Shown: one piece after another, positions 18,946 to 35,930 of the stretch
Layout of the letters: each line of letters opens with the position of its first letter
How positions within the stretch are numbered: position 1 is the first letter of the stretch
Translations under genes and position numbers: made by a program
Notes under the pieces: model-generated
Databases searched by the model: none
Seen by the model: the letters and a program-made list of their open reading frames with translations, nothing else
Told to the model about the DNA's origin: nothing
DNA from: a virus
Lineage: Duplodnaviria > Caudoviricetes
Strand: one strand, 5' to 3'
IMG/VR virus record: IMGVR_UViG_3300048629_000034
Coordinates: 49,116-113,115 of that record
Length of the DNA stretch: 64,000 nt

Positions 18946-19713
18946 ATGAGAATTAAACAATTAGGGAATGGTGGAGGTTTAAATCCTCAACTGACAAACA
19001 GTAGCTTCTTAATAGAATATACATCAAATCAGTTTTTATTGTTTGATTGCGGATTCAATATTATGGATCGATTAATAAAATTAGAAGAAGACTCAGTTAA
19101 ACACGATGCATCATTCAGAATATCTAAAATAGATATAGTTTTTGTTAGTCATACAGATGATGATCATATAGGTAACTTACAAACATTGATCTACTGGAAT
19201 TATTTTAAGAACCAAAAGAAGATGGAAATCATTTCACACAATGAAGTATTTGATATTATTGATAAAATGAATACTATTAAAACAGCAGGTATTGTTGAAG
19301 ATTTTAAATACTTCATTAAAATAGATATTTCAAACAGAAAAGAAGTGTATTATAATCTTGTTTCTGACTCTATGCTTAAATTGACGTTCATTAAGGCATA
19401 CCACGGATCTAGAAAATGTTATGGATTACTTGCAATCAAAAGCAACAAAGCAATATATATATCAGGAGATACTGTAGCGCATCCTTCAATAGAGAATACA
19501 GTAACAAAAGAAATTAAGTTACAACAAAACATTTCCGGATCAAATCTAAACTCAATTATGTTTCATGATTATAGCCACTGGGATTGTCCAAGTAAAAATG
19601 TTCATGCTTGTAAAACAAACTTCGAGGAAGAATACAGTAAAGAATTTAGAGATAAATTAATCAAGTATCATACAGGTGAGGATGACTTCAATAAAGACTG
19701 GAGAATACTATAA
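18946..19713 (+). CDS. metallo-beta-lactamase-fold hydrolase (RNase Z / Apyc1-like)
   Basis: LG.GG, LLFDCG, SHTDDDHIG, AYHG, ISGDT, FHD, VHA, KYH motifs. Confidence 0.85.
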   Translation: MRIKQLGNGGGLNPQLTNSSFLIEYTSNQFLLFDCGFNIMDRLIKLEEDSVKHDASFRISKIDIVFVSHTDDDHIGNLQTLIYWNYFKNQKKMEIISHNEVFDIIDKMNTIKTAGIVEDFKYFIKIDISNRKEVYYNLVSDSMLKLTFIKAYHGSRKCYGLLAIKSNKAIYISGDTVAHPSIENTVTKEIKLQQNISGSNLNSIMFHDYSHWDCPSKNVHACKTNFEEEYSKEFRDKLIKYHTGEDDFNKDWRIL

Positions 19714-19988: not shown

Positions 19989-20483
19989 ATGGAAAAAACA
20001 TTCACAGCACAAGAGGTGCAAGCTATAGCTACACAAGCAGTTGAAAATCACGTATCAAACGGAGGAAACGGTATCGTTTCTAAAGCATTAGATGGTGTAA
20101 CAGCAACAGGAAGAGCAATCGCAGAGGAAACTCAAGCAAACGCTAAAAGAGAAGCTGGTAGAAGACTATACGATAACATTGAGGAGTTAATTAACAGCTA
20201 TATTCTATCTAAAATGAATTTCATGCAAAGATGGTTAACTTCGGATAAAACTAAAAGAATGGCAGTATTAGTTGGTACATATACAGTTATTCACGCTATT
20301 AAATCTGGTGGTTTCGGATTAACTAATTATAGAATAAATCACGCTATGTTAGATTTATTATCATCTGAATGTAATGCAAGAATCATGTCATCTGTACTAG
20401 GTGGATTTGACACAAATATTGCTAAAGCATTATTTACTAAACCTGAAGTTACTGAAGTAGTTTCAGAAGTAGCAGGAGCATAA
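19989..20483 (+). CDS. hypothetical protein
   Basis: 164 aa, GAGG RBS. Confidence 0.8.
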   Translation: MEKTFTAQEVQAIATQAVENHVSNGGNGIVSKALDGVTATGRAIAEETQANAKREAGRRLYDNIEELINSYILSKMNFMQRWLTSDKTKRMAVLVGTYTVIHAIKSGGFGLTNYRINHAMLDLLSSECNARIMSSVLGGFDTNIAKALFTKPEVTEVVSEVAGA

Positions 20484-20485
20484 TT

Positions 20486-20620
20486 ATGGCAGCACAATCA
20501 GTATCAGATGCTGTAGCTGCTGCATTAGCGGCTGCAGGTACAACAACTACATCAGGAACTACTCCTACAGTGACAACTACGGACTCAGAAACTCTATCTG
20601 TATCTAGTAAAGGTCAATAA
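20486..20620 (+). CDS. 44-aa peptide MAAQSVSDAVAAALAAAGTTTTSGTTPTVTTTDSETLSVSSKGQ, candidate minimal ubiquitin-like modifier
   Basis: AGGAG RBS at 20474-20478; ends KG-Q just upstream of E1/E2/JAB genes; below track cutoff. Confidence 0.7.
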   Translation: MAAQSVSDAVAAALAAAGTTTTSGTTPTVTTTDSETLSVSSKGQ

Positions 20621-20705
20621 ACTAAATCATAGTATTTAGATAGATGGTTCTTAATATTCTGTTATTAGAACCATCTAGTGTGTATACTATACAAAGGAAC
20701 CGATC

Positions 20706-21122
20706 ATGACAATAAACAAAGATTATATTTTAGACCTGCTTAATAATCCAGATAATGGAAACAGAGAGTACCAACTCATAGTATTCATTCTAAAAAGTGC
20801 TGACGAACTAGATAAACTTTATTCTAAACTATTTAGCTGTGTAAAAAGTTACGAAAGGCACAGAGCGGCAGACGTAGTATCATTCAAAAACTCATTAAAA
20901 CAACATGCAAAAAATAAAGAAGACTTCTGCTTGTTTATAAGGTTAACTTCGAACAACACTAAATTAGGCTCAATATCTCATAGTGACTTCGATTATTTCA
21001 ATAATCTCTGTGACAAAATTGATGGATATGTATATTATCAGGACTTAAAAACATTAATAATAAGAGACATACCTCGACTTCTACATGAACCAAATGCATT
21101 CATACTACATGATACTAACTAA
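20706..21122 (+). CDS. LHDTN-tail family protein 1
   Basis: ends NAFILHDTN; immediately upstream of E1. Confidence 0.85.
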   Translation: MTINKDYILDLLNNPDNGNREYQLIVFILKSADELDKLYSKLFSCVKSYERHRAADVVSFKNSLKQHAKNKEDFCLFIRLTSNNTKLGSISHSDFDYFNNLCDKIDGYVYYQDLKTLIIRDIPRLLHEPNAFILHDTN

Positions 21123-21152
21123 CAAAACAATCTCAATAAAAAGGATAAACAA

Positions 21153-22157
21153 ATGACACAAGAAAACATAAACTTTAGCAAAAACTATTTAGCAGAACAA
21201 ATCAAATCACGATATGCTATGTTTCCACGAATTAGAGATGGTAAGTCTAATCTAATTATAGACTCTATAGCTCCACATTGGATATACAATAAATTAAAAC
21301 AAGAGCATCTAGATGATAATGGTAGAGCAACTATAGGCGATAAAAAACCTAAAACAGCATATGCTATATCAGCATACTTTGCAGATATCTTTAGAGTACC
21401 TAAAGTGCCACTAGCTGATCTACTTGACATACTTGGATATAAACCAAAAGAAATAAATTCTCTTCTATACAAAGTTGCAAAGAAGAAACATGATATTTGT
21501 TTAGTTGGATATGGTGGATCTGGACAAAACTTCACTTACTGGCTAACTGAAATGGCTGGATTACTTGGTAAACAGAATTTATTTGAATCATTAACTATAT
21601 ATGAGAAAGAACATGTTGAGTATTCAAACATCCTTAGATTTCCAAAAAATGTATTAAATCACAAAAATGGAACTACTCACAAACTTCATACAATGACAAA
21701 TGAAGGAATATTGGCTAGAGCAACAAATTTAATTCCAGATTATATAGACCAAGAAGGCGTAGACAAATTATTAGAGGATAAACCAAACACTATATTCTAT
21801 GGTGGTGGATCTATACCTACTATGGAAATGTTGTCTAACTACAATTTTGTATCTGCAACTCATGGAAACAATGACTGTACTTTAATTGTTAAGCCAGTAC
21901 AGGACAGTAGAATTCAAATCGAATCTTATGGAGTAATTATGCTATCTTCATTCTTTATGAACCAACTTAGAATGACTATAGGTTTTCTTGAGTTCTTGGC
22001 TCAGGATGATATTGATTGGACTCAAAGAGTATATCTTGACTATAACTTTACTACAGCAGAAACTAGAAGAGATAAGCACAAATATAACTGGCAACTAGAA
22101 CATAGTCAAACAATTGGACTAGAAGAAAATGACGAAGGAGACACTAATGTTAACTAA
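21153..22157 (+). CDS. E1/ThiF-family adenylyltransferase (ubiquitin-activating-like)
   Basis: ICLVGYGGSG (GxGGxG), YEKEHVEYSNILR (D.D.VE.SNL.R equivalent), downstream conserved Lys. Confidence 0.8.
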   Translation: MTQENINFSKNYLAEQIKSRYAMFPRIRDGKSNLIIDSIAPHWIYNKLKQEHLDDNGRATIGDKKPKTAYAISAYFADIFRVPKVPLADLLDILGYKPKEINSLLYKVAKKKHDICLVGYGGSGQNFTYWLTEMAGLLGKQNLFESLTIYEKEHVEYSNILRFPKNVLNHKNGTTHKLHTMTNEGILARATNLIPDYIDQEGVDKLLEDKPNTIFYGGGSIPTMEMLSNYNFVSATHGNNDCTLIVKPVQDSRIQIESYGVIMLSSFFMNQLRMTIGFLEFLAQDDIDWTQRVYLDYNFTTAETRRDKHKYNWQLEHSQTIGLEENDEGDTNVN

Positions 22158-23568
22158 TGACAAAAAATTAGAACAACTATTATTTGAAGAGGAAGCTGGT
22201 AATTTCTATGATATCTATTCTAAAGAGGAAAATGTAGGAGAAGATGATATAGACAAGAATCTTCATAATAATTGCGAGATAATATTTACAACAAAGTATA
22301 ACATACAGCAAACTCAAGACTTACTTACAGCAGGTAAATTTATTATGGATATAGATCCATTAATGGATAATTATAGCAATGAATATTTTAGTGATATTAC
22401 CTCGAAACTTGATGGAGACGATTTTTTAAATAATATTCTTAGGACCTCAGTTGAAATTGAAGGACAATATTCTTTTGCAGATGCAATAAATATTATAGCA
22501 AATGTAAAAATACAAATGGGTGATGAGTTTTATGGTGCATTGTTAATAGAACCAAATAAACAATACACATTTAATCCTCTACATCATTTAGTAGCGGTTG
22601 AGTATCTAAAGCACAGAGATGATAATGACACATTTAATGTATTTATATTTAGCAATTCTAATGTAGACAAATTTAATCTTGAAGACAATGCTAAGGAAAG
22701 AGCAAAAAACAATATCATTAATCAATTGGGAATGTATGCAATCAGAGGAATTGTTAAAAGCAGAAGAATTATTGACGAGTCAAGACAATCATTTATTGAT
22801 AATGTACTTGAAAATGATAAACACGTGCTTAAAACAAAAATATCTTATTCTGCAGAGAGAAATGACAATGGAGACGAAATATATGTAGTGCCACAACAAC
22901 TTCTAACGAGTGGCTTAGCAATACCGTATTATGGAACAACATTGTACAAAGTAACAACAAATTCATCAGGAGACAGAAGTTCGTATGGTTCACACATTAC
23001 ACCAATGCTTGGAGTAAATACAGCATCTGGATGGTCAGGGAGAAAAGTAGATCATGCAAAAGATATTACTTTTGACTCTGTTTGTACAGGAAACGAAGTT
23101 TCAACAACTATCAAAGGAATTTTAACGCATAATCATTCTAATCTTTCATCTCCATATTTTAGTAATTGTGTAATGGAAGGGTGGCATGAATTATCGCAGG
23201 AGGCAATAAATACATCACTAATGATATATAAGGATCTTCTTAACAAGGATACATGTAACAAGCTTGGATTTGATTGTGATGAGGCTCATAAATTAAACAC
23301 AAGCAGCGACAATACTGACAAAGCGGAAAATGAAAAGTTAATTGAATCATGGTCAAGCTGTCCATTTAATGACATATCATCTTCAGAGCCGTGTCCAGCA
23401 CTGGTATCTTTAAAAGAATATACAGATTACTTGATTGGAGATTCACTATCTAATTTAACAGCTGGAGAAATATTACTTAGATACAGAGAAGCAAATAAAT
23501 ACCTATCTGGAATCGATACAGACTACACAACGCCAGATGGTGCTAAATGCGAACCATGTACAGAATAA
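22147..23568 (+). CDS. protein with C-terminal-half prokaryotic E2-like domain
   Basis: HITPM.GVN...SVCTGN...NHSNLSSPY matches the E2 pattern P..N..xC.G and N..SP; located between E1 and JAB; start moved to ATG 22147 (AAGGAG RBS). Confidence 0.6.
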   Translation: MLTNDKKLEQLLFEEEAGNFYDIYSKEENVGEDDIDKNLHNNCEIIFTTKYNIQQTQDLLTAGKFIMDIDPLMDNYSNEYFSDITSKLDGDDFLNNILRTSVEIEGQYSFADAINIIANVKIQMGDEFYGALLIEPNKQYTFNPLHHLVAVEYLKHRDDNDTFNVFIFSNSNVDKFNLEDNAKERAKNNIINQLGMYAIRGIVKSRRIIDESRQSFIDNVLENDKHVLKTKISYSAERNDNGDEIYVVPQQLLTSGLAIPYYGTTLYKVTTNSSGDRSSYGSHITPMLGVNTASGWSGRKVDHAKDITFDSVCTGNEVSTTIKGILTHNHSNLSSPYFSNCVMEGWHELSQEAINTSLMIYKDLLNKDTCNKLGFDCDEAHKLNTSSDNTDKAENEKLIESWSSCPFNDISSSEPCPALVSLKEYTDYLIGDSLSNLTAGEILLRYREANKYLSGIDTDYTTPDGAKCEPCTE

Positions 23569-23584
23569 AAAAAAAGGAATACAA

Positions 23585-24814
23585 ATGAAAAAACAAACAT
23601 ATAGACAACCTAAGCCGCAAGCCCAATTTGACTATCTAACTAGACAATTTAAAACTAGACAAAAAGATTTAATTAAGGATAATAAATCAACAAATAACTA
23701 TGGTATATTATTATTGAACCAACAAAACCTGGACAACATCAGACATAAATCAGAGGTAAATATTACAACTCATGATGAATATGGATTTCATTACAGAGCT
23801 TTAGTAGCTAGAGTTGTAACTGGATCGGGGAATACATCTGAGTTTCTTGACATTTGTATTCCAACTGTATATTATAATTACAAACAAGAAGTGTCTGGAG
23901 GAGAAGTTGAATTTCATTTAGCGGATGTTGAAGCAGCGGCAAACGAAGTAAAACCTCTATCAGATATGATGGTTAACAAACTATTTGAATCTGACATTTC
24001 ACTGGGGACTAGACTTAATAATCTATTTAATGAATTGAAGATAAAAGCAGAGTATTTCGATGTAGGGGTTAACTCTATTCATATGCATCCAGCAGGACTA
24101 CATAGATTCTCTGGTGGAGACCTTGACACTGATCATACTAATCCTGGAATTTGTTTTCCTCTTAGTAAAGCAGAAAAAGAAACTAATTTTGCATCTATTG
24201 TAACTAGACGAGGTAAAGGAGTTATTCTTGGACATACTGAATATAGAATTGCAGATGGCGATGTATCTACAAATGAACCAATCAATTACTATCACGGTAA
24301 ATCAATTACTTTAGTAAAAGGATATGCTCCAACAGACGATAGAACTACTATGCAAAAGTTACTTGGATTTAAAGTAGATGAACCAATTAAATCATATACT
24401 GTATCTGACGGTTTAGACTTGTCTGACTTTGCAAACAAAGTAAATGAACTATTCAATGAGTCTGATTATGTTGCATTTGATGATACTGTAATTTCAGATA
24501 ATGTATCTAAATATGTATACAAACCAAAGCCAGTAGCAAAAAAGAAACCAGCAATTGCAGCTTCTAAGCAAAAAACTATTACAGCCAAACATGTAGAACT
24601 AAAGATAGTATATACAGATAAAACCACTGGAGATAAATATACTCAAGATGATATTGATGACATAATTGAAGAACTAATGTATTCGAGTACTGGAGTAAGC
24701 AAAGCAGAACTTATGCAACTAGAATACAAAGAGCTAGTAGATAGATATGAAGAATATATTATGAGACCAGGAAGCTACTCTTTTGGAGGATTTGGGTATG
24801 ATTATGACTATTAA
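23585..24814 (+). CDS. JAB/MPN+ metallo-isopeptidase
   Basis: HDEYG (catalytic E), QEVSGGEV, SIHMHP..HRFSGGD (HxH..S..D); start moved to ATG 23585. Confidence 0.8.
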   Translation: MKKQTYRQPKPQAQFDYLTRQFKTRQKDLIKDNKSTNNYGILLLNQQNLDNIRHKSEVNITTHDEYGFHYRALVARVVTGSGNTSEFLDICIPTVYYNYKQEVSGGEVEFHLADVEAAANEVKPLSDMMVNKLFESDISLGTRLNNLFNELKIKAEYFDVGVNSIHMHPAGLHRFSGGDLDTDHTNPGICFPLSKAEKETNFASIVTRRGKGVILGHTEYRIADGDVSTNEPINYYHGKSITLVKGYAPTDDRTTMQKLLGFKVDEPIKSYTVSDGLDLSDFANKVNELFNESDYVAFDDTVISDNVSKYVYKPKPVAKKKPAIAASKQKTITAKHVELKIVYTDKTTGDKYTQDDIDDIIEELMYSSTGVSKAELMQLEYKELVDRYEEYIMRPGSYSFGGFGYDYDY

Positions 24815-24831
24815 AAACAAAGGAAACCACA

Positions 24832-25698
24832 ATGGAAATTAAATTCGACGATTATGTATCAGCAGCAGAGCATTTGCCAGAGAAAGCAGATAACACTTTC
24901 TTTATCAGTCCATCTGCATTTTATGATTTTATAGATAAAAAGCATCTTTGGTTCAGACAACAATTTATGAAGGAAGATCAATTTGAAGGTAATACTGGAT
25001 CCAATCTTGGTAACATAATTCACAAAGCATGTGAAATGTACACACAAGAAGTAGATGTAACTGATGAGCAAATTAATGAGTATATTGATTCATTACCAGA
25101 TAATGATGAGATAGACAAACAAACAATCAGAGATAACTACAGATCAATGATTGATACTGTATTGACTAGATTTTTAATGGATACGAATATTGATGAGACA
25201 GAACAATTTATTGGCTATGATTTATCTGAACATGTAACTGTGGGTGGAACTTTCGATTACACTAGAACAGATAGATCTGGCAGACAAATTATTGGCGATT
25301 ACAAGACTACAGCAAGTAAGTTACCTCCAAAGAAAATCGAACAGAAACATAAAATGCAAGCATTAATATATGCATATATTATGGATAAATCAGATCTATA
25401 CATGCGACCAGATATGTTAGAGATTGTATATATCACAAGGCATCATGATCCAGTTATCAGCGAGAAAACAGGCAAGCCAGGCAAAGAATATTTTCCAGAT
25501 GTATCTGTACTTCAATATGAAATTACAGATAATGATATGGCATATATTGATTCATTAATGAGATTATGCGCGGAAACTATGCATTTCTTCTTTGACAATC
25601 CAGATAAAGCATATATCATATTTACTGACTACAGACTAAAGGGTGAATTTTTCGAAACATATAAATATACTGAAGAACAGGAACAACCACTGTTCTAG
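24832..25698 (+). CDS. PD-(D/E)xK (Cas4/RecB-like) exonuclease
   Basis: ISPS, GNIIHKACE, GGTFD, IIGDYKT, QALIYA. Confidence 0.85.
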   Translation: MEIKFDDYVSAAEHLPEKADNTFFISPSAFYDFIDKKHLWFRQQFMKEDQFEGNTGSNLGNIIHKACEMYTQEVDVTDEQINEYIDSLPDNDEIDKQTIRDNYRSMIDTVLTRFLMDTNIDETEQFIGYDLSEHVTVGGTFDYTRTDRSGRQIIGDYKTTASKLPPKKIEQKHKMQALIYAYIMDKSDLYMRPDMLEIVYITRHHDPVISEKTGKPGKEYFPDVSVLQYEITDNDMAYIDSLMRLCAETMHFFFDNPDKAYIIFTDYRLKGEFFETYKYTEEQEQPLF

Positions 25699-25711
25699 AA
25701 AGGAGAGCAAA

Positions 25712-25990
25712 ATGTATTCAGATGATACAATAAATGGAATGACTTATGAAGAGTATTATAGAGCATCTGTAAACGAAGGGTTAATTGAGTCTGGTTATAT
25801 TTTAATCAATAAACAAAGCAAATATATACATCCAATATCATTCAAATTTATGAATAAATATTATTCGTCTAACCACAAAAGAGTTGATAAGTATTCATAC
25901 AAGAATGAATATTGGATAAAACATACACAGCAGTCAGATCTGTATAAAATATATATGATTTTAACTAATAAAGTACACAGGATAATTTAA
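25712..25990 (+). CDS. hypothetical protein
   Basis: AAGGAG RBS before ATG 25712. Confidence 0.6.
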   Translation: MYSDDTINGMTYEEYYRASVNEGLIESGYILINKQSKYIHPISFKFMNKYYSSNHKRVDKYSYKNEYWIKHTQQSDLYKIYMILTNKVHRII

Positions 25991-25992
25991 TT

Positions 25993-26202
25993 ATGATTTC
26001 AAATTTAACACATAAGTTTCTAGATATAACAAACATGTGGATGATATATGGTTTCTATGGTAAATTCACTCGAACAACTTCACATACCTGGTTCTATCAG
26101 GAATACGAACAATTAGGTGGACTATACTCTAATACAACAATAACCCCAAAATCAACACTACATTGGTGGAAATTATGGCTACTAGGAGACAGTAATGACT
26201 AA
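25993..26202 (+). CDS. hypothetical protein
   Basis: ORF in operon. Confidence 0.5.
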   Translation: MISNLTHKFLDITNMWMIYGFYGKFTRTTSHTWFYQEYEQLGGLYSNTTITPKSTLHWWKLWLLGDSND

Positions 26203-26887
26203 TGAAATACCAGCACATATATTGGTTAAAGACCCATTGTATATATATTATTACTTACAAGAACCAAAAGACTCTAATAATGTATTCGAGAGAACAGCAG
26301 AGTTAGTATCTGATGAAAAAAGTCACAATACTATAGCAACAATCAGATGCTCAACGATTAAGAGAAGTGTTTTAAATAATAATACAATTATACGTGGATC
26401 ATATGACAGTTATATAGACACTTACGATAACTCTATTCATAAAGTATCACTTATCTCATCTAAAACATTAGCAATTGAATCTAAAGATAATTCAAGCACA
26501 CATCTAGAGTTAGCTATTGTAAATTGGTTATTGCAAGATGATTCATACAAACTTCAGTTAGATGCAATAGTAAAAGACGCAAGTTATTATAATCCGGATG
26601 CTGGACCATCAGAGCAAACTGTATATTTTGAACCAATACCTGATATAGAGCAATATATTACTAATAAATTAAACAAAGTTCAGGCATACATTGATAATCC
26701 GAATACTATAGAAGAATGTAAAGATCTTAGATGGTATAAGAATAAGCAGGGAATTACGAAGAAAGTTGCATGTGAATTATGCCAATACAATTCTGTATGT
26801 AAATTTTACAATAAATCTAAATCAATCAGCAACAGAAAAGCTAAATCAAATATAGCAAACAGACTAAAGAATTTGAAGAATCTATAA
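26195..26887 (+). CDS. degenerate Cas4-like PD-(D/E)xK protein
   Basis: IRGSYD strand; C-terminal C...W...CELCQYNSVC cluster; no D/E-x-K motif seen. Confidence 0.5.
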   Translation: MTNEIPAHILVKDPLYIYYYLQEPKDSNNVFERTAELVSDEKSHNTIATIRCSTIKRSVLNNNTIIRGSYDSYIDTYDNSIHKVSLISSKTLAIESKDNSSTHLELAIVNWLLQDDSYKLQLDAIVKDASYYNPDAGPSEQTVYFEPIPDIEQYITNKLNKVQAYIDNPNTIEECKDLRWYKNKQGITKKVACELCQYNSVCKFYNKSKSISNRKAKSNIANRLKNLKNL

Positions 26888-26976
26888 CTGGTTCTTCAAA
26901 TTCAATACATATAAAAGAAATTTACTATATTTTTTATATGTATTGAACAACCAGATAAGCAAATAATGAATAGGAG

Positions 26977-27369
26977 ATGAGTATAAAAAGACAAAATAAC
27001 AAAACATTTATTTGTGAGATAGGGATGGAACTAAATAGACTTCCAAGGAATGGATATTTACTTATGCAAGCTTCCAATAATAATGAATGGCTACAACTTA
27101 CTAGCACTTTACGTGAAAATCATAAATATTTAGGCGTGCCACTGTCTAAAGAAATGCTAAATTTATTTGAGGACACAAGAAATAAAGACTTTTTTATGTT
27201 ATGTATTCAAAAAAATCAACACCACGAATTAAAGTTATCATTAGTATCTAAACTTTACGTAAACAGTTTAAGTTTTAAAAAAATGAATTATATATATAAG
27301 ATATTTGACATTTCTACATTCTTTAAAAAAACAACAACAAATCAATTCATACTACACGACACTAATTAA
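26977..27369 (+). CDS. LHDTN-tail family protein 2
   Basis: ends NQFILHDTN. Confidence 0.85.
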   Translation: MSIKRQNNKTFICEIGMELNRLPRNGYLLMQASNNNEWLQLTSTLRENHKYLGVPLSKEMLNLFEDTRNKDFFMLCIQKNQHHELKLSLVSKLYVNSLSFKKMNYIYKIFDISTFFKKTTTNQFILHDTN

Positions 27370-27388
27370 TTAATATAAAGGAGAATGA

Positions 27389-27730
27389 ATGCTAAGAAAA
27401 ATATCAGAATGCAAAATACTAAGCGAACTTGAAAAAGTAATTGACAACAACAGAAGAGTTGTAATACTAGCTGATAATAAAGAAGAGTGGGATGATATTT
27501 TACGGTTTATATTTTCTCAACAAAAGTATGAATTAACAGCATCAACTTCTAAATTAGACACTTGGTTGCCATATTATGTAAAGTATAAAAGAGACGCAAT
27601 AGTAATCACAAGGTTAAACGACACATTGAGACTTACTCACACAGAGCGTATATATGCCAAAGAAAGCTCTGATATTATAATAAGCATAAACAGAAGAGAT
27701 AACCAATTCATACTGCACGACACAAATTAA
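27389..27730 (+). CDS. LHDTN-tail family protein 3
   Basis: ends NQFILHDTN. Confidence 0.85.
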   Translation: MLRKISECKILSELEKVIDNNRRVVILADNKEEWDDILRFIFSQQKYELTASTSKLDTWLPYYVKYKRDAIVITRLNDTLRLTHTERIYAKESSDIIISINRRDNQFILHDTN

Positions 27731-27739
27731 GGACATTAT

Positions 27740-28076
27740 ATGCTAGACAAATCATCGCAATATAAAATATTAAATGAGCTAAAGCAAGTTATAAATGACG
27801 ACGAAATAGTAATCATATATACAAGGAGCAAAGAAGAAATGGGAAGAAGCCATAAAATTTATATATTCTCAGCAAAAATATAGTTTTTATAAAACGGGTT
27901 CACTATTAGAATGGATAAGTTATTATAATGTAAAAAGTAGTTTTTGTATATTCTTGTACAGAAAAAACGAAAAACAATTCTATATAAAACATGGAGTCCT
28001 TAAGTATAAAACGAAATATAATACGATAATTAAAGTAAACAAAAACAGTAATTTTATCTTACATGACACAAACTAA
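27740..28076 (+). pseudogene. LHDTN-tail family protein 4, frameshifted by one extra A at about 27837-27839
   Basis: removing one A gives a 111-aa ORF MLDKSSQYKILNELKQVI..KEEWEEAIKFIYSQQKY..SNFILHDTN, a close paralog of 27389-27730. Confidence 0.8.
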
Positions 28077-28109
28077 AAAATAATACATATAAAAGAGGAG
28101 ATTGATTAA

Positions 28110-28427
28110 ATGAAAACAAAAATTACGAAAAATATATTAACAAAACAAGAATTATTTGAAGAAGTAGAGAATAGATACAACTATCATAATGAGAAGCCTG
28201 CAAAATGTACTGATACAACAAATAATGTTGCATGCAAGTCTAAAAAACTATACCTTCATTATCTAGAAAAATACGATAAAAACAAAGATTCAAATTTATT
28301 CGATTATTTCAAATGGTTGAGAACACAACGAGCAGAAGTATTTAATCTACCTAAAACTACAATCAAAAGAAGGACAAGAATATGGGAAGTGAATGCAAAG
28401 ACAACACTGAACTATCTAGACCATTAA
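28110..28427 (+). CDS. hypothetical protein
   Basis: GAGGAG RBS. Confidence 0.7.
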   Translation: MKTKITKNILTKQELFEEVENRYNYHNEKPAKCTDTTNNVACKSKKLYLHYLEKYDKNKDSNLFDYFKWLRTQRAEVFNLPKTTIKRRTRIWEVNAKTTLNYLDH

Positions 28428-28444
28428 CAAAATAAAGGAACCAA

Positions 28445-29689
28445 ATGACATACAACAGTAAGCAGATACAAGCAATAAATATGGCATCAAGCCTAAAACA
28501 TAAGGTGTGCTACATATCAGGAGCTCCAGGAACTGGTAAATCTACATGCCTTAAACAAATCATTGAGAACATAGGAGCTAATGGTTCTGAAATAGTTGTA
28601 ATGGCTCCGTCTCACAAAGCTAAACAAGTAATTGAAAAAACAATAGACGATAAGTCACTTGAGTATATGACAGTGCAGAAATATTGTGGACTTAAACCAA
28701 AAATAAATAGTAAAACAGGAATCCAGACTTTTGTAGAAGAGTTTAATCCGAAGGAACAGACATGCGATGTTGCAGTAGTAGATGAAGCTAGCATGTTGAC
28801 GCAGAAAATGCTAGACAAAGTTATGAGAACAAGCAATCATGTAATTCTATTAGGAGACATTCATCAGCTTGAAGCAATAGAGGATCCAATACCTGAACAA
28901 ACTTTGTCAGATATACCAGTAATAGAATTAACTGAGCAGATGAGACAGAAATCAATCCATTCTGATCTGTATAAAGTTATTCAGATTTTTCTTAAGCGTA
29001 AGAATAACAATACAACTCGTACATTTAATTTTGATACTGAGTCTGATGGATCTATCATTGTGCACAAAGATCTAAGCGATTTTATAGATACATTTATTGA
29101 ATCTAAATCTACAAGCAAGAGAATCATTGGATTCAGAAATGTATCAATTGACTATATTAATTCTGAAATTAGATCAAAACTATCACTACCTGATTATCCA
29201 ATAGTTGGAGATATTATAGTACTTCAGCAACCTATAACTAGACGAGGGAAGAAGAATAATAGAGTAGTTAAGGAGATTGTGTATAACAATGGGGATGAAT
29301 TAACAATCAAGAAAATCACACCAGTCGATAATAACACTGACTATCCAACATTCATGATGGCAGAATGTATCAGACACGGAGATATGGAAACTAGAGAAAT
29401 CAAAATACCATATGACTCAATCAAGTTTAATAACAATCTGCAGAAATTAGCAAATTCAATCAACAATGGAACAAACAAGAGATTATGGACAGAGAAATAT
29501 TATCCATTGAAAGAATCTGTAGCCCACTACAAATTCAACTACTGTGGAACTACACACAAAGCTCAAGGAAGTACTTATGACGAAGTATATATCTTGCATA
29601 AGGACATGATTGTAGCCGGAGATAATTATAACAGACTTATGTATGTTGCAATTTCGAGAGCTAAGACTGTAGCACATATAAAGGATTAA
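28445..29689 (+). CDS. SF1B DNA helicase (Dda/RecD-like)
   Basis: GAPGTGKS, APSHKA, VVDEASM, GDIHQL, LTEQMRQ, TTHKAQGST, YVAISRA. Confidence 0.92.
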   Translation: MTYNSKQIQAINMASSLKHKVCYISGAPGTGKSTCLKQIIENIGANGSEIVVMAPSHKAKQVIEKTIDDKSLEYMTVQKYCGLKPKINSKTGIQTFVEEFNPKEQTCDVAVVDEASMLTQKMLDKVMRTSNHVILLGDIHQLEAIEDPIPEQTLSDIPVIELTEQMRQKSIHSDLYKVIQIFLKRKNNNTTRTFNFDTESDGSIIVHKDLSDFIDTFIESKSTSKRIIGFRNVSIDYINSEIRSKLSLPDYPIVGDIIVLQQPITRRGKKNNRVVKEIVYNNGDELTIKKITPVDNNTDYPTFMMAECIRHGDMETREIKIPYDSIKFNNNLQKLANSINNGTNKRLWTEKYYPLKESVAHYKFNYCGTTHKAQGSTYDEVYILHKDMIVAGDNYNRLMYVAISRAKTVAHIKD

Positions 29690-29691
29690 TT

Positions 29692-30096
29692 ATGGATAAG
29701 CTTCTATTGCATAACCAAAACTGGAACAACATAGAAAAACTAGCAGTAAAAGAAAACGACAAATTAATAATATTCATAAATATAAATAATTTAAATACAT
29801 TTAATACAATAACGGATCTATTCGGAAGACAAATAGGATCGATGGATGATATGCGTTATTATTTTACTGAAGATAAACAATACGTATCTTTGTATTTACA
29901 CAAAGATCGCAATGGAGATCCCTCTCAAGGATGGACAGGTACTAAAGAGATAGATCTACATGCGGATATTATAAAGGTATTAAACAATGAGTTCTATTCA
30001 AACATTTATCCAGCAGCCATAAAATGCATTATTGACGCTAGGCATATATCAAATATAAATACAGACCAGAGGATAATTTTACATGACACAAATTAA
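29692..30096 (+). CDS. LHDTN-tail family protein 5
   Basis: ends QRIILHDTN. Confidence 0.85.
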   Translation: MDKLLLHNQNWNNIEKLAVKENDKLIIFININNLNTFNTITDLFGRQIGSMDDMRYYFTEDKQYVSLYLHKDRNGDPSQGWTGTKEIDLHADIIKVLNNEFYSNIYPAAIKCIIDARHISNINTDQRIILHDTN

Positions 30097-30457
30097 CGAA
30101 AAAGCATTAGCTAATTTTCTTAAATATCAAGCAGATGGAGACAACATAGACAAAGATGTAATTATTGTTGAATCTATTGATGAATGGAATAAGATATTTG
30201 AATGTCTATATAAATATAAAATATACGGACAGAGATCTGGTCTGTCGTTAAAAGAATGGGAAAGTGTATATAGAAGATGCAATAATAATAATGGGGATTA
30301 TGCGCTAAGGTTAGCTAGTGAAATAAACCTAAATCATTCAAGTTCTGATTGGATGATAGCGAACTACATTGAAGACACAAACGGCAAAGCAATACATTTC
30401 AAGGATATACCTGGAGTACACAGATTGAATCAATTTATTCTGTACGATACAAATTAA
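30083..30457 (+). CDS. LHDTN-tail family protein 6
   Basis: ends NQFILYDTN. Confidence 0.85.
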   Translation: MTQINEKALANFLKYQADGDNIDKDVIIVESIDEWNKIFECLYKYKIYGQRSGLSLKEWESVYRRCNNNNGDYALRLASEINLNHSSSDWMIANYIEDTNGKAIHFKDIPGVHRLNQFILYDTN

Positions 30458-30476
30458 TACACAAGGAGGCGCTATA

Positions 30477-30872
30477 GTGAAAGATATTAATTCAATAAAT
30501 AATATTGACGAACAACAATTAAGTGGCTTAATGAAAGAATTAAAGTCAAACACCAATAATAGCTTTGATGCTCTATTTATATATAATATTAAAGATTCAG
30601 ATAGTTTTCATGATATTATGAAGTTGTGGGGAAGAGGAGACATTTGTGGAAAAGATCACATTGGATATCCTCGGGCATTAAGTCTCGAACAGGATGGAAC
30701 ACAAGGATGGGAAGAACAATTTAAATATAGCATTACTACGAATGATCAGATATTACGTCAAGCTGAAGTTTTTTATATTAAATGGAAAAAAATGTATTCG
30801 CTAGACTACAATACGCTATTAGATGGCAAAAATAATAATCTAAATCAATTTACATTATACGATACAAACTAA
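30477..30872 (+). CDS. LHDTN-tail family protein 7
   Basis: GTG start, AGGAGG RBS; ends NQFTLYDTN. Confidence 0.85.
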   Translation: MKDINSINNIDEQQLSGLMKELKSNTNNSFDALFIYNIKDSDSFHDIMKLWGRGDICGKDHIGYPRALSLEQDGTQGWEEQFKYSITTNDQILRQAEVFYIKWKKMYSLDYNTLLDGKNNNLNQFTLYDTN

Positions 30873-30896
30873 TCAACACACAGAAGGAGAACCAAT

Positions 30897-32708
30897 ATGA
30901 CACAAGAATATAAACTCAGAGATTATCAACAGGAAGCTGTAGACGAAATAGACGCTGGATTTTCATTTGGAGAAGATGAAATCATACTTGAAGCATGTAC
31001 ATCATTCGGCAAAACAAGTGTAATATGTGAACTAGCTAGAGTACATAAGAAGTCAGTTACTATTCTTGTGTCATTAACTCCATTAGTCCAACAAATAAGC
31101 AATACACTAACACTTATGGGAGTTGATCATTCAATCATTAAAGCAGGTCGTGATAGTGAATTTGATCCAAATGCACGAGTGCATCTTGCTATGGCTCAAA
31201 CATTGCATTCACGAATCAAAGCAGATAAGATGGAATTTACAACTAATTTGCTTATTCAGGATGAATATCATATATCTTATAATACCAAGCGTACAGATGA
31301 AATCAAGCAGGTACTTAAACCTAATAAGATATTGGGTCTAACTGCAACTCCATACGATGCTAGAGGATACAGATTATCTAATACAGCAGAGATTGTGGCT
31401 ACAGCACACGAGAAGGATCTTGAGTCTCAGGGTTTCCTAGCTCCAGTCAAATACTATATACCAGAATGGTCTGAAAAAGTAGATTATGATAGAGTAAAGA
31501 AGAACGGTGGTGATTATACTGGTACAGCATTGAATGAAATTGTAAATACAGAGACTCATATAGAACAAGTAATTCAGTCAATGAATAAACTTAATGCACA
31601 AAACAAGAAAACTATTGTATTTTGTTCTACAATTGAGCAGTGTGATTATATTACAAATAGATTAAAACAGCATGGATATTTAGCTGAATCATTTCATAGT
31701 AAAATTGGTAAGCAAAACTCAGAACTAATGCTTGATGTATTTACAAATAATGCTGATAATTATATTGAAACAGGACCAAAGAAAAAACTATCTGAGCTTG
31801 AATCTGGTTCTTTATTTGACGACAAACCAGTCAAACCTCAGCCTAGAGCAGTCAAATGTTTAGTATCGGTGAGTAGACTAACAACGGGCTTCTCTGTTGA
31901 AGACATACAACTTGGAGTAGCAGTCTCTAAAACTTTAGTTAGATCTAAATTTGTACAAATGGCTGGCAGATTGCGTAGAATACATCCAGATAAGCAATTT
32001 GGTGAATTTCTTGATTGCGCTCAACTTATATCTACACATGGATTTCCTGATGAAATATATGTTCCTCCACCTAGAATTGGAATATCATTAGCAGATAAGA
32101 AGGCATTAGCTGATGCAACTAAGAGTATACCTGATATCAGAATTGTATGCGATGACGAATTATCAGAACCAATTACATTAGATAAATATAATCTTCGTTT
32201 GGTTGAATTAAAGAACACAAAGAAACGTCTAACTCAAATGGATGTTCCTGAGCTTAGAGATAAACTATTAGTTGAATCTGATTTGCTAACTACATTCTCT
32301 ATTATTACTGTATTATTTGATAAAGTATTATGTGAGCCTATGCCTGACAAATGGGGAAACGACTCAAGGGGTTATGTAGCTTCAAATGGTAAAACAGTTG
32401 TTGGCTTCGTTAATCCCCGTACAATCGAATGGATAGCGTCTAAATGGATGGAAGCATACGAAACTCTACCACAGTATTTTAAAGATAAATATCTTAGAGC
32501 ACTTAAGACTAGATCTATTAATGCAATCAAACAGAATAAATCTATATATTCTCTTGGATTCTTTATTGAATTTCTTATGGAGCAAGACTCATTTGACCTT
32601 GAGATTGAAGATAGTACGACTAAAGAAGAACCAAATATATATGATAATGATCATACTGACAATGCAGATGATTATGAAATTGATGAGGATGGAGATATTC
32701 CATTCTAA
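30897..32708 (+). CDS. SF2 DExH-box helicase (UvsW/YejH-like)
   Basis: LRDYQ, TSFGKT, QDEYH, GLTATP, LTTGFS, QMAGRLRR. Confidence 0.9.
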   Translation: MTQEYKLRDYQQEAVDEIDAGFSFGEDEIILEACTSFGKTSVICELARVHKKSVTILVSLTPLVQQISNTLTLMGVDHSIIKAGRDSEFDPNARVHLAMAQTLHSRIKADKMEFTTNLLIQDEYHISYNTKRTDEIKQVLKPNKILGLTATPYDARGYRLSNTAEIVATAHEKDLESQGFLAPVKYYIPEWSEKVDYDRVKKNGGDYTGTALNEIVNTETHIEQVIQSMNKLNAQNKKTIVFCSTIEQCDYITNRLKQHGYLAESFHSKIGKQNSELMLDVFTNNADNYIETGPKKKLSELESGSLFDDKPVKPQPRAVKCLVSVSRLTTGFSVEDIQLGVAVSKTLVRSKFVQMAGRLRRIHPDKQFGEFLDCAQLISTHGFPDEIYVPPPRIGISLADKKALADATKSIPDIRIVCDDELSEPITLDKYNLRLVELKNTKKRLTQMDVPELRDKLLVESDLLTTFSIITVLFDKVLCEPMPDKWGNDSRGYVASNGKTVVGFVNPRTIEWIASKWMEAYETLPQYFKDKYLRALKTRSINAIKQNKSIYSLGFFIEFLMEQDSFDLEIEDSTTKEEPNIYDNDHTDNADDYEIDEDGDIPF

Positions 32709-32723
32709 TATAAAGGAAATACT

Positions 32724-33182
32724 ATGAGAGAAATAAATTTTTTATTACAAATAAACGACATGGATCCATCAGGACAAATAAGAAGAATCTCTAGAGAAAT
32801 AGAATGTGATAATTACGACAAAATGTCAGTACCAAGATATGTTGATTTCTTCAAAAACGAAATAAAAAAAGCATTAAATATTAAACTAGCTCCAAAGTTA
32901 TTTAGTGACAAAACACATCGTAAGTTCACTATAAAGACAAAAGATCTATTTATAAACCATGCTAATATATCAAGAGATCCATATGCCATGAACAATGAAA
33001 TATGGGCAGCAATGACTTTATTTATAGAAGATGATAGAGATAACCCTCATATCGATAGTTTAAATTATTACAAATCACATAATAGTGATGATGCAGTTCA
33101 ATTGTTGTATAAAGCAATAGCAAGAAACACAGATACTACAGAAACTATTACAGATAGGATAATTTTACATGACACAAACTAG
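32724..33182 (+). CDS. LHDTN-tail family protein 8
   Basis: ends DRIILHDTN. Confidence 0.85.
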   Translation: MREINFLLQINDMDPSGQIRRISREIECDNYDKMSVPRYVDFFKNEIKKALNIKLAPKLFSDKTHRKFTIKTKDLFINHANISRDPYAMNNEIWAAMTLFIEDDRDNPHIDSLNYYKSHNSDDAVQLLYKAIARNTDTTETITDRIILHDTN

Positions 33183-33540
33183 AATTATAGACACTAATAA
33201 ACTAATAAATTACATAAATAATAAAGCAAGCAATAAGCATGAGTGCATAATCAAAGTAAATTCTAATGATCACTGGATCAGATTAATTTTCTCAATATTT
33301 GATAATGGTAGTGATATTGGTTTATCACATAGAAATTCTAGTAGAAACCTATGGGCCACTTACTTTAGTAAAGAATCTCATACAAATAATTGCATATATT
33401 TATTTATTGACAAAAGTAAGTGGCTTTCGTATTCAGAAGAAGGTTTCATAAATGAGCACAATTTAAACGATCATGTAGTTGATTTTAAATACTTTCTAGT
33501 TGAAGACAAACCTAACTTCAAATTACATGATACAAACTAA
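33169..33540 (+). CDS. LHDTN-tail family protein 9
   Basis: ends PNFKLHDTN. Confidence 0.85.
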   Translation: MTQTRIIDTNKLINYINNKASNKHECIIKVNSNDHWIRLIFSIFDNGSDIGLSHRNSSRNLWATYFSKESHTNNCIYLFIDKSKWLSYSEEGFINEHNLNDHVVDFKYFLVEDKPNFKLHDTN

Positions 33541-33551
33541 AAGGATACAAC

Positions 33552-33926
33552 ATGACAGAAAGAGAAATTCTACTTAAATTCGTAAAGAATGAACTAAAGA
33601 AGAATATATCAGATAGAAAAGTAATTATTTGCGAATCATTCATTGAATATTCAAACTTTCTTCATTGGACGGATGCACATAAAGTAATAACAAATATAAA
33701 TGACTCAAGAAATGATATGGATGAATGGATAGCGGAATTTGAATTCTACAAAGACACAGGAAAGATAGTAATCTTTTTAGAACTAAATGACTCTATAGCT
33801 ATAGACAGTATGAAGTATTTAGAAATGTGCGACCAATACGATGACAGAAGGACAATATATTCTGAAATAATTTCATCATGCAACAAGGAAAACAAAGATA
33901 TGTTTATATTACACGACACAAATTAA
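33552..33926 (+). CDS. LHDTN-tail family protein 10
   Basis: ends DMFILHDTN. Confidence 0.85.
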   Translation: MTEREILLKFVKNELKKNISDRKVIICESFIEYSNFLHWTDAHKVITNINDSRNDMDEWIAEFEFYKDTGKIVIFLELNDSIAIDSMKYLEMCDQYDDRRTIYSEIISSCNKENKDMFILHDTN

Positions 33927-33935
33927 GGAGAACCA

Positions 33936-34313
33936 ATGACAACATACAAACAATTAGAAAAACAATGTCAATCTATAGCAAATGACTTATCAAATGGTAT
34001 AGAAGTGACAGAAGATAATGTAGATTACTATCCAGATCTATCTATTGGAGATAATGTCTCTGGACATGATTATTTATCACATGATACACAAGATGATTGG
34101 ACATATACAATAAGTAGATCAGGGGACTATAGATCAGGAGAAGTAGCAATGGCTTTAGGTGGTCCAAGTATATGGATAAATACAAATACAAGAACCGTAG
34201 AAGGCTATTGGGGCTCAGATAGAGTAACTATACCATATATTGATAATATTGGCTTAGATGATGCTCTATGTGAGTTTTACGAATGCGGAATAGGAATGAA
34301 TCTAAATAAGTAA
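33936..34313 (+). CDS. acidic hypothetical phage protein
   Basis: AAGGAG RBS; ALGGPSIWINT..VEGYWG. Confidence 0.75.
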   Translation: MTTYKQLEKQCQSIANDLSNGIEVTEDNVDYYPDLSIGDNVSGHDYLSHDTQDDWTYTISRSGDYRSGEVAMALGGPSIWINTNTRTVEGYWGSDRVTIPYIDNIGLDDALCEFYECGIGMNLNK

Positions 34314-34982: not shown

Positions 34983-35930
34983 ATGTTGCAAACAGCAAAT
35001 GATGCACCAAACTTTACAATAGTGTTGCCAGTTGATTGTCAGGCAGATTGTGTATTTTGCTCATGGAGAACTAGCAATCAGGACAAACAGAAAATGGACG
35101 ATGATAAATTTTTCAAAGCAATTATTCATACATTGAATAATTTGCCATCTAATTGTACAGAATTAACAATTAGTGGGGGAGAACCAACAACATATCCATA
35201 TTTAGAGCAAGTATTAAAACTAATACAACTACATAAGAAAGAGAACATTAAAAAAGTAGTATTTACTACAAATGGACAGAATCTATATTCCTGGGCTAAG
35301 GACAGTCTATTTTTAGATGTAGTGGATTATGTAAACATAAGCAGACATCACTATATCCAAGAAGACAACGACAGAATAATGAGAATACGAACTATAAATT
35401 GGAATACTATATGTTCAGTATCGGATAGATTATCTAAAGCTGGAATTAGAACCAATATCAATTGTATATTAAGTACATCTGTAATGAAAGAATACGATTA
35501 TGAATTTTTAGCTTGTTTCATAGATTATGCTAGAAATCATAGTATTAATTCTATAACATTTAGAAAAGATTATGATGATGGATTCGGAATGCATTATCTG
35601 GAACAGGAAATACAAGAAACATATAAACCATTGCATATTGGAGAATGCCCTGTATGTAGAAAATCTAAATACCTTATTAATGGTATGGAAGTATTATTTA
35701 CTACATCAGAATTTGAACCAACAGCATACTATGGATCACAATCTATATATGAATTTATACTTCAACCTAACGGAAATCTAACATCAGATTGGGAAGGAAA
35801 TAGTACAGTTGAGCTAGATACGAAACCTAAACTTAAACAATGTACTGATAATACTTCTAATCTGAATCTAACTTCTAGAGGATATTTAGCAGGCTCTGGT
35901 AGAGGATGTGGAAGCAGTGGATGTAGATAA
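34983..35930 (+). CDS. radical SAM enzyme
   Basis: CQADCVFC (CxxxCxxC), ISGGEPT, TTNG, NISRH; extra CPVC and C-terminal GCGSSGC. Confidence 0.9.
   Translation: MLQTANDAPNFTIVLPVDCQADCVFCSWRTSNQDKQKMDDDKFFKAIIHTLNNLPSNCTELTISGGEPTTYPYLEQVLKLIQLHKKENIKKVVFTTNGQNLYSWAKDSLFLDVVDYVNISRHHYIQEDNDRIMRIRTINWNTICSVSDRLSKAGIRTNINCILSTSVMKEYDYEFLACFIDYARNHSINSITFRKDYDDGFGMHYLEQEIQETYKPLHIGECPVCRKSKYLINGMEVLFTTSEFEPTAYYGSQSIYEFILQPNGNLTSDWEGNSTVELDTKPKLKQCTDNTSNLNLTSRGYLAGSGRGCGSSGCR

Follow-up and report, generated by a model that had tools for sequence, protein, structure and literature searches.

What could hold ten largely dissimilar small proteins of one phage to the same C-terminal end? The question is raised by a 64,000-nucleotide stretch of DNA (the window, meaning the whole stretch analysed here) that comprises bases 49116-113115 of the single 113,115-bp contig in the IMG/VR virus record IMGVR_UViG_3300048629_000034. 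Between positions 20706 and 33926, ten plus-strand open reading frames (ORFs), here named T1 to T10, end in L-[H/Y]-D-T-N followed directly by a stop codon (Table 1; coordinates are window positions unless a locus label such as L002 is given). They are arranged as a single copy (T1) and three triplets, interleaved with helicase genes. All ten ends and tails lie where the initial annotation had placed them, and a scan of all six frames across the 113,115-bp genome agrees, with L[HY]DTN-stop occurring at these ten sites only, all on the plus strand. The count of ten ORFs needs one correction, in that nine are intact while the copy ending at 28076 is broken by a 1-nt frameshift. Of the C-terminal tripeptides found in the 190 ORFs that reach 60 aa or more, only DTN occurs more than twice (nine times, plus the frameshifted copy). 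We propose that the tail is probably a recognition handle that requires a free asparagine (Asn) end; the reader of this handle that we favour, tentatively, is the neighbouring E1-like machinery, working by MccB-like or Cap2-like logic.

Two profiles, run against 5.8 billion protein clusters, matched this phage and one relative only, a 113.8-kb metagenomic phage found in several samples, including a hydrothermal-vent metagenome; the E1-like proteins of the two phages are 63% identical. The relative carries six small genes, all of which end in F-x-L-[A/T/E/Q]-Q-T-N-stop. Across the 16 members of the two phages, L at position -5, T at -2 and N at -1 are invariant (16/16), position -7 is F, I or L, position -3 is D or Q by lineage, and no member extends beyond the Asn. 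The initial annotation had described variable heads on a constant tail, and had looked to homologs losing the terminus or extending past the Asn as grounds for abandoning that description; the relative's six members all stop after T-N and both uphold and extend it, with x-Q replacing [HY]-D. A degenerate DNA pattern for FILHDTN-stop gave one isolated match in IMG/VR, in a 53-codon ORF, which we judged to be chance. The tail family is thus new, with homologs in two phages only and without a recognised fold or annotation.

Selection acts on the tail as a peptide. Synonymous forms occur at every tail codon (Leu CTA/CTG/TTA, His CAT/CAC, Asp GAT/GAC, Thr ACT/ACA, Asn AAC/AAT), and the stop codon itself varies between TAA and TAG. 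The majority base has a frequency of 0.93 at codon positions 1 and 2 and of 0.60 at position 3 of the last seven codons, against 0.59 and 0.60, respectively, over the preceding seven codons. From these statistics it follows that the peptide, together with where its stop codon falls, is under selection, which bears out the earlier proposal, made from silent-site variation, that the DNA itself is not what is conserved. The converse, that the conservation lies at the DNA level, in a promoter, a recombination site or translational coupling to which the peptide would be incidental, draws on the tail codons of T5 and T8, which contain the ribosome-binding site and ATG of the following gene, and on the relative, in which five of the six copies share identical last 12 nt, CAAACAAATTAA. 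However, third positions in the window tails are as variable as those of the flanks, Leu is encoded through both CTN and TTA, and a downstream start is overlapped in only two of the ten copies; the codon statistics largely refute this explanation, and we consider it extremely unlikely.

In the window, every gene of the family is preceded by a correctly spaced sequence resembling a Shine-Dalgarno (SD) site. In T4, the first 32 codons, counted from the ATG at 27740, are out of frame with the tail owing to one extra base near 27836-27839, in a GAAGAAA run; the break could mark a pseudogene, come from faulty assembly or be a programmed frameshift. T5 and T6, like T8 and T9, overlap by 14 nt, with AGG/AGGA serving as the SD site and cATGac, within the His-Asp codons, as the next start. 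The R-I-I variant of the T5 and T8 tails arises because these codons are dual-coded with the SD and ATG of the overlapping genes. At the start sites in 30873-30899 and 33927-33938, the sequence GGAGAACCAAT(AT)G serves as SD plus spacer.

Table 1. Positions of the tail family genes and of genes beside them in the window.
Feature	Position	Strand	C-terminal residues	Remark
T1, 138 aa	20706..21122	+	AFILHDTN	between the conserved micro-ORF and the E1-like gene; SD-like AAAGGAA upstream
T2, 130 aa	26977..27369	+	QFILHDTN	opens triplet 1
T3, 113 aa	27389..27730	+	QFILHDTN	T4 paralog (blastp E 9e-8)
T4, frameshifted	27740..28076	+	NFILHDTN	1-nt frame break near 27836-27839
T5, 134 aa	29692..30096	+	RIILHDTN	tail codons hold SD and ATG of T6
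T6, 124 aa	30083..30457	+	QFILYDTN	copy chosen for structure model
T7, 131 aa	30477..30872	+	QFTLYDTN	GTG start
T8, 152 aa	32724..33182	+	RIILHDTN	TAG stop; tail codons hold SD and ATG of T9
T9, 123 aa	33169..33540	+	NFKLHDTN	
T10, 124 aa	33552..33926	+	MFILHDTN	
E1-like adenylation-fold protein, 334 aa	21153..22157	+	GDTNVN	candidate receptor of the tail; motif YGGGSIPTM
Conserved protein, 479 aa	22129..23568	+		invariant NPxH, VCTG (Cys319) and H-x-N...P
Protein with JAMM/MPN+ motif, 425 aa	23537..24814	+		H-x-H-P-x5-7-F-S-x-x-D, conserved in 5 homologs
Conserved micro-ORF, 44 aa	20486..20620	+	SVSSKG-Q	upstream of the E1-like gene
Dda/RecD-like superfamily 1 (SF1) helicase	28445..29689	+		between triplets 1 and 2
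Superfamily 2 (SF2) helicase	30897..32708	+		between triplets 2 and 3

The heads that carry this tail are far less uniform. Body similarity is detectable only among T3, T4, T6, T9 and T10 (ends 27730, 28076, 30457, 33540 and 33926); in an hhalign comparison of T3/T4 with T6/T9/T10, the N-terminal halves align with a probability of 69% (E 4e-5). The strand-helix motif that the initial annotation had assigned to most of the bodies holds for these five copies, whereas the remaining bodies have no detectable sequence similarity to one another or to the five, and isoelectric points across the family range from 4.8 to 9.5. Neither Pfam nor PHROG gave anything above threshold in any of the 15 members scanned. 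T6 was modelled with AlphaFold, and the model, with a predicted local distance difference test (pLDDT) score of 70.9, shows a small alpha/beta domain, with residues 116-124 predicted as coil outside the fold. This model has no significant match in BFVD (best E 1.3); against 48,161 PDB chains the best Z-score is 3.8, and no ubiquitin-like protein is listed. Against the ESM Atlas, TM-scores of 0.37-0.54 are reached, with helicase RecA-like domains in several rows, a weak lead only. A beta-grasp modifier seems improbable and was dropped, since the T6 model does not look like a beta-grasp and the terminal residue is Asn and not Gly. An intein-type terminal Asn was also set aside, as there is no C-extein and the stop codon follows immediately, and so was a sortase-type L-x-x-T-N or NPQTN signal, there being no signal peptide and no membrane anchor beyond the motif.

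The neighbour most likely to read such a tail is the E1-like protein, whose gene begins 30 nt after the end of T1. The 334-aa protein has no Pfam, PHROG or PDB sequence match; searching PDB sequences with the three proteins of the operon, and with profiles of the E1-like protein, gave nothing significant, the best match being a ThiF-type protein (9egc, E 0.59) on the motif D-x-V-E-x-S-N-L-x-R. Its predicted structure (pLDDT 76.7), however, is that of an E1 adenylation domain, and on this model the neighbour has the E1 adenylation fold. In VIA comparisons the best match is Cap2 (7to3; Z 13.0, root-mean-square deviation 3.7 over 182 residues), followed at Z 11.0-11.7 over residues ~97-304 by Uba6, the BilD-type bacterial E1-E2-Ubl structure 8tz0 (Z 11.6), MoeB, ThiF and MccB (Z 11.0, residues 97-300), and Uba1 is a further fold relative with Z within 11-13. 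In Foldseek, the top matches are MccB chains (E 2.6e-5, with alignments spanning 243-294 columns). The protein carries an N-terminal domain of ~96 aa, as MccB does, although the VIA alignment begins only at residue 97. The E1-like family comprises 358 clusters at 50% identity, and conserved within it are GxGGxG and E-x-S-N-x-L-R-F-P-K; there is no conserved Cys, as in MccB, MoeB and ThiF.

One segment of this enzyme sets the two tail-bearing phages apart from the rest of its family. In an 80-sequence alignment, 78 of the 78 other sequences contain the motif [YF]GAP....R, more fully [YF]GAP[DNGST]xxxR, with no invariant Asp. The exceptions are the window phage (YGGGSIPTM) and the relative (YGGGSVETA); the tail family occurs in these two phages alone. 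Lost in both are A218, P219 and R224 (E1-like residues 216-224; window 21798-21824). Judging from motif order and spacing, the counterpart of the segment in canonical E1 enzymes would be the D-N-x-x-x-R stretch that adjoins the adenylation site. Because all other family invariants are kept, the protein looks remodelled and not decayed, and the change fits a pocket reshaped for a new, bulkier terminal residue, as would be expected in that case, although it proves nothing by itself. K109 and T123 of the E1-like protein also deviate from the family. The protein's own end, ...GDTNVN (22137-22157), lies in a low-pLDDT tail, and the relative's JAMM protein ends in ...DFISTN (L002 13647-13664); these ends could be cis pseudo-substrates or chance. 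A complex prediction with two E1-like chains, ATP, Mg and T6, run with alignments, scored 0.01, which speaks neither for nor against binding.

The motif change would be left unexplained if the tail were a C-terminal degron, recognised by a host or phage protease and giving the whole set a common, timed turnover. Such a role would suit the exact C-terminal placement, as in ssrA-type tags, the occurrence of the motif on otherwise unrelated heads, and the difference in tail between the two phages, possibly with different hosts. Bacterial C-degrons, however, are mostly non-polar at the tip, unlike D/Q-T-N, and no protease gene is linked to the family, so that we regard this explanation as improbable.

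The E1-like gene belongs to an operon with the order micro-ORF, E1-like protein, Cys-bearing 479-aa protein and JAMM-motif protein, followed by PD-(D/E)XK and helicase genes. The 479-aa protein has no Pfam, PHROG or PDB match, and its ESM Atlas model is of low confidence; by its invariant Cys it is possibly a thioester carrier. The 425-aa JAMM-motif protein likewise has no Pfam match, with Prok-JAB only a weak lead, and a low-confidence ESM Atlas model. Of the 11 other loci examined, 10 have, 5' of the E1-like gene, a micro-ORF of 38-50 aa that ends in ...S-x-S-G plus 1-8 aa (equivalents at L002 9764-9901, L009 9794-9922, L005 8504-8626, L006 3710-3841, L012 9748-9864 and L019 4410-4547). Its product has an Ala-rich start and a Ser/Thr-rich end of the form ...S-L-x-T-x-S-x-S-G before those last residues; in the relative, the Gly is replaced (...SSKSESTI). 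The micro-ORF product looks like a JAMM-matured peptide modifier or a precursor of a peptide made on the ribosome and modified after translation (RiPP), and it is likely to be the universal substrate of the operon; it is the most orthodox candidate for that role because it resembles a peptide that JAMM would mature to a terminal Gly. The operon is found in at least 11 other phage contigs, with no repeated C-terminal tail within ~10 kb in any of them, and its core role is therefore independent of the tail family.

In both phages, genes of the tail family flank this operon. In the relative, three members stand in tandem just 5' of it and two just 3', one after the JAMM gene and one after the PD-(D/E)XK gene, while the sixth lies directly 3' of an intein-bearing UvrD-type helicase gene. 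The stretch between the Dda-like and the SF2 helicase gene, occupied by a triplet in the window, is free of family genes in the relative, and the family therefore moves between intergenic slots. The idea that the tail is a handle for the E1-like machinery is circumstantially supported because the neighbour has an E1 fold, family genes flank its operon, and E1 residues are lost in the same two phages. The pattern of conservation, at positions -7 and -5 (hydrophobic), -3 and -1 with T at -2, would fit a strand dock followed by a pocket enclosing the last three residues.

We infer binding, adenylation and all downstream chemistry as follows. The tail would be a short linear recognition handle, functional only as a free C-terminus, and its carriers would be lineage-specific, fast-diversifying small cytoplasmic phage proteins that are expressed with the replication genes. 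The F-x-L segment would dock as an extended strand, while the last three residues, [D/Q]-T-N, with their free carboxylate would enter the adenylation pocket of the E1-like enzyme, which would use ATP to activate the terminal Asn. The outcome could then be an MccB-type C-terminal succinimide or nucleotidyl-isoAsn; alternatively, the whole protein could be transferred to a target in the manner of Cap2, perhaps via the invariant Cys of the 479-aa protein. Conjugation of the Cap2 type would be reversed by the JAMM protein. If the E1-like machinery does read the tail, this would be the first E1-like enzyme to act on Asn-terminated proteins, and not on peptides, and the first system of many tagged effectors to be encoded by a phage; it would join the tagging chemistries of microcin C, cyclic oligonucleotide-based antiphage signaling system (CBASS) cGASylation and ubiquitin-like modification, and would be a natural source of orthogonal tags for C-terminal ligation.

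Several observations weigh against such a role. The E1-like/Cys-protein/JAMM operon recurs in the other phage contigs without the tail family, and its own micro-ORF, with ...S-G plus an extension, looks like the orthodox substrate. Because the change in the E1 motif and the tail family both arose in one lineage, their co-occurrence counts as one event in evolution. In the window, nine of the ten copies are at a distance of 5 to 12 kb from the E1-like gene, beside helicase genes. The adenylating activity is itself only putative because the family lacks a conserved canonical Mg-binding Asp at the D-N position, and the VIA alignment to MccB starts at residue 97, outside the N-terminal domain, the putative counterpart of the MccB peptide clamp. 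The candidate substrates are folded proteins of 78-152 aa, far above any MccA in size, and no export or immunity genes are found among the scanned neighbours. A bolder version, in which the phage has retooled a widespread E1-like enzyme (YGAP..R to YGGG..M/A) to activate the C-terminal Asn of a folded family, would amount to a new ATP-driven protein-tagging chemistry operating during infection, with a C-terminal cyclic imide, a nucleotidyl-isoAsn or an Asn-linked conjugate as its product and with heads shaped by an arms race, the proteins being either protein-sized MccA-like substrates or Cap2-like self-conjugating effectors; this version we think rather unlikely.

The micro-ORF also allows another division of labour, in which its peptide is the modifier and the T proteins act as exchangeable adaptors for substrates or as favoured targets. 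Their constant tail would then plug into the E1/Cys-protein/JAMM machine, and the variable heads would choose host proteins for tagging, by analogy with F-box proteins or the poxvirus PRANC box. The S-G end plus extension of the micro-ORF suits a JAMM-matured modifier; the lineage-specific expansion, fast head divergence and movement between slots suit an arms-race adaptor set; and the linkage and the E1 remodelling apply here equally as for a handle that is itself activated. The adaptor arrangement is, however, entirely inferential, with no E3-like docking domain identified, and a strict Asn as the last residue is unexpected for a mere docking box; we give it a low probability.

The position of most copies beside helicase genes points to a further alternative, that the tail is a peptide for non-covalent docking to some hub outside the E1 machinery, with each head bringing an activity to the hub or blocking it. 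The hub could be a component of the phage replisome or a helicase, or else the host sliding clamp, a protein that interacts with the single-stranded DNA-binding protein (SSB), or RNA polymerase; by analogy, the free carboxylate and the T-N tip might be read like the C-terminal tip of SSB or the tails of gp2.5 and gp4 of bacteriophage T7. Nine of the ten window copies are interleaved with two helicase genes, and the relative's sixth member directly follows its UvrD-type helicase. The SF2 helicase in the window itself ends in ...DEDGDIPF (32694-32708), a tip identical to that of the bacterial SSB C-terminal tail (the L009 ortholog ends in ...DPDIPF), and docking through a C-terminal tip would thus already be in use within the module. 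The T6 model puts the tail outside the fold, and a separate hub would account for the occurrence of the E1 operon elsewhere without the family. Bacterial clamp-binding motifs are of the Q-L-x-L-F or Q-L-[SD]-L-F type, which Q-F-x-L-[HY], present in four of the ten window copies, resembles loosely; the strongest conservation, however, is at the terminal T-N and not at the Q, L and F of clamp-binding motifs, and the last position of the motif (-4) is A, T, E or Q in the relative. No candidate hub, the clamp included, has been identified, and the lineage-specific change of the E1 motif is left unexplained. We regard docking to such a hub as possible, and as only slightly less probable than a handle for the E1-like machinery. 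If true, it would define a new hub-and-tail module with ten clients in the phage replication region, whose members would be good candidates for host takeover or anti-defence. Under either reading, the tail peptide offers a simple experimental hook into a family that is opaque to sequence and fold searches.

The wider genome places the family within a replication module. The contig is that of a phage, and its relatives are IMG/VR viral contigs; its GC content is ~32%, and the central 50 kb consists almost entirely of plus-strand genes. Megablast of positions 20000-34000 against 50,697 phage records gave no match. The phage encodes a ribonucleotide reductase, an RNA ligase, a GIY-YIG protein, several helicases and PD-(D/E)XK nucleases. 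This setting bears on the proposal that the tail is a signal by which the proteins are loaded into the virion or capsid, to be injected later. A precedent exists in the internal proteins of bacteriophage T4 and in encapsulin cargo, which carry common terminal targeting peptides. The genes of the family, however, belong to the plus strand of the replication module and have SD sites of their own, whereas the large structural genes are on the minus strand at the window ends, and nothing ties the family to capsid genes. Because the family stands on the plus strand among replication genes, packaging is disfavoured, and we hold it to be very unlikely.

Several other genes of the two phages deserve mention. 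The large subunit of the ribonucleotide reductase (51363-54503) holds a LAGLIDADG-type insertion (intein). An intein also interrupts the relative's UvrD-type helicase (L020 15774-18242), and the window copy (49794-51272, 492 aa) is without it. At 18946-19713, a metallo-beta-lactamase-fold protein is encoded whose ortholog in the relative matches the Pfam family Anti-Pycsar_Apyc1, which suggests an anti-defence nuclease for cyclic nucleotides. A radical S-adenosylmethionine protein (CxxxCxxC; 34983-35930) lies directly 3' of the last triplet.

Among known systems, the MccB family is the one E1-like group known to have Asn-ended substrates, which range from 7 to 56 aa (PMC11118369, PMC4010828, PMC12596934). 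After O-adenylation by MccB, the Asn side chain forms a succinimide, outcompeting external nucleophiles (PMC11118369, PMC4010828, PMC12596934); MccA substrate genes can be duplicated, as in Synechococcus, and ~20 C-terminal residues suffice for recognition (PMC4010828, PMC11118369, PMC12596934). The present locus resembles the MccA-MccB pair in having an E1/ThiF-fold enzyme that would need no thioester Cys, gene-encoded proteins with an invariant last Asn (their status as substrates being assumed here), a putative substrate gene directly 5' of the enzyme gene, and MccB chains as the top Foldseek matches. It differs in that the proteins are of 78-152 aa, 16 of them in two phages, instead of short precursors of 7-56 aa. 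By Z-score, moreover, MccB is not a nearer match than Cap2, Uba1, MoeB or ThiF; JAMM and Cys-bearing proteins accompany the E1-like protein, and the setting is a lytic-type phage replication module. No MccC-, MccD-, MccE- or MccF-type or transporter genes were seen in Pfam scans of 20 neighbouring proteins.

In type II CBASS, the substrate of the E1 protein Cap2 is a protein that is not ubiquitin-like; Cap2 adenylates its disordered, conserved C-terminal tail and joins the protein to targets, and a JAB enzyme reverses the conjugation (10.1101/2022.03.31.486616). The likeness to the system of Cap2, the nucleotidyltransferase of the cGAS/DncV-like type (CD-NTase) and Cap3 lies in an E1 domain and a JAB-type gene in one operon and in Cap2 as the best VIA match. 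However, the tails of Cap2 substrates end in Gly or Ala, in contrast to Asn here, and Cap2 is an E1-E2 fusion with catalytic cysteines. The present E1-like family has no conserved Cys, and an invariant Cys (in VCTG) is found in the 479-aa neighbour. The Cap2 substrate is a CD-NTase, while the 15 family members scanned have no Pfam match; there is one Cap2 substrate per operon against ten here, and CBASS is a host defence, unlike this phage module. The Bil and Bub systems share the operon logic of a small modifier with E1, E2 and a JAB deubiquitinase, and 8tz0 is matched at Z 11.6, but their modifiers are beta-grasp proteins ending in Gly, whereas the T6 model has no beta-grasp match and its tail ends in Asn.

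Docking of protein tips to the replisome, as by the ...DDDIPF end of SSB or the acidic tails of gp2.5 and gp4 of bacteriophage T7, offers an extreme C-terminal motif with a free carboxylate, several proteins that share one hub, and a replication-module setting in which the phage's own SF2 helicase ends in ...DIPF. The motif F-x-L-x-[DQ]-T-N, however, has an Asn and not an aromatic end, and the ten carriers far exceed the known cases. Encapsulin cargo-loading peptides, the capsid-targeting sequence of bacteriophage T4 and the poxvirus PRANC box likewise combine variable heads with one constant terminal peptide, but they have no sequence similarity to the present tail, the family is not linked to capsid genes, and nothing there parallels the strict terminal Asn. 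The architecture of variable heads on a constant handle, together with both candidate mechanisms, is therefore precedented, whereas there is no precedent for ten folded proteins whose handle strictly ends in Asn, next to a remodelled E1-like enzyme.

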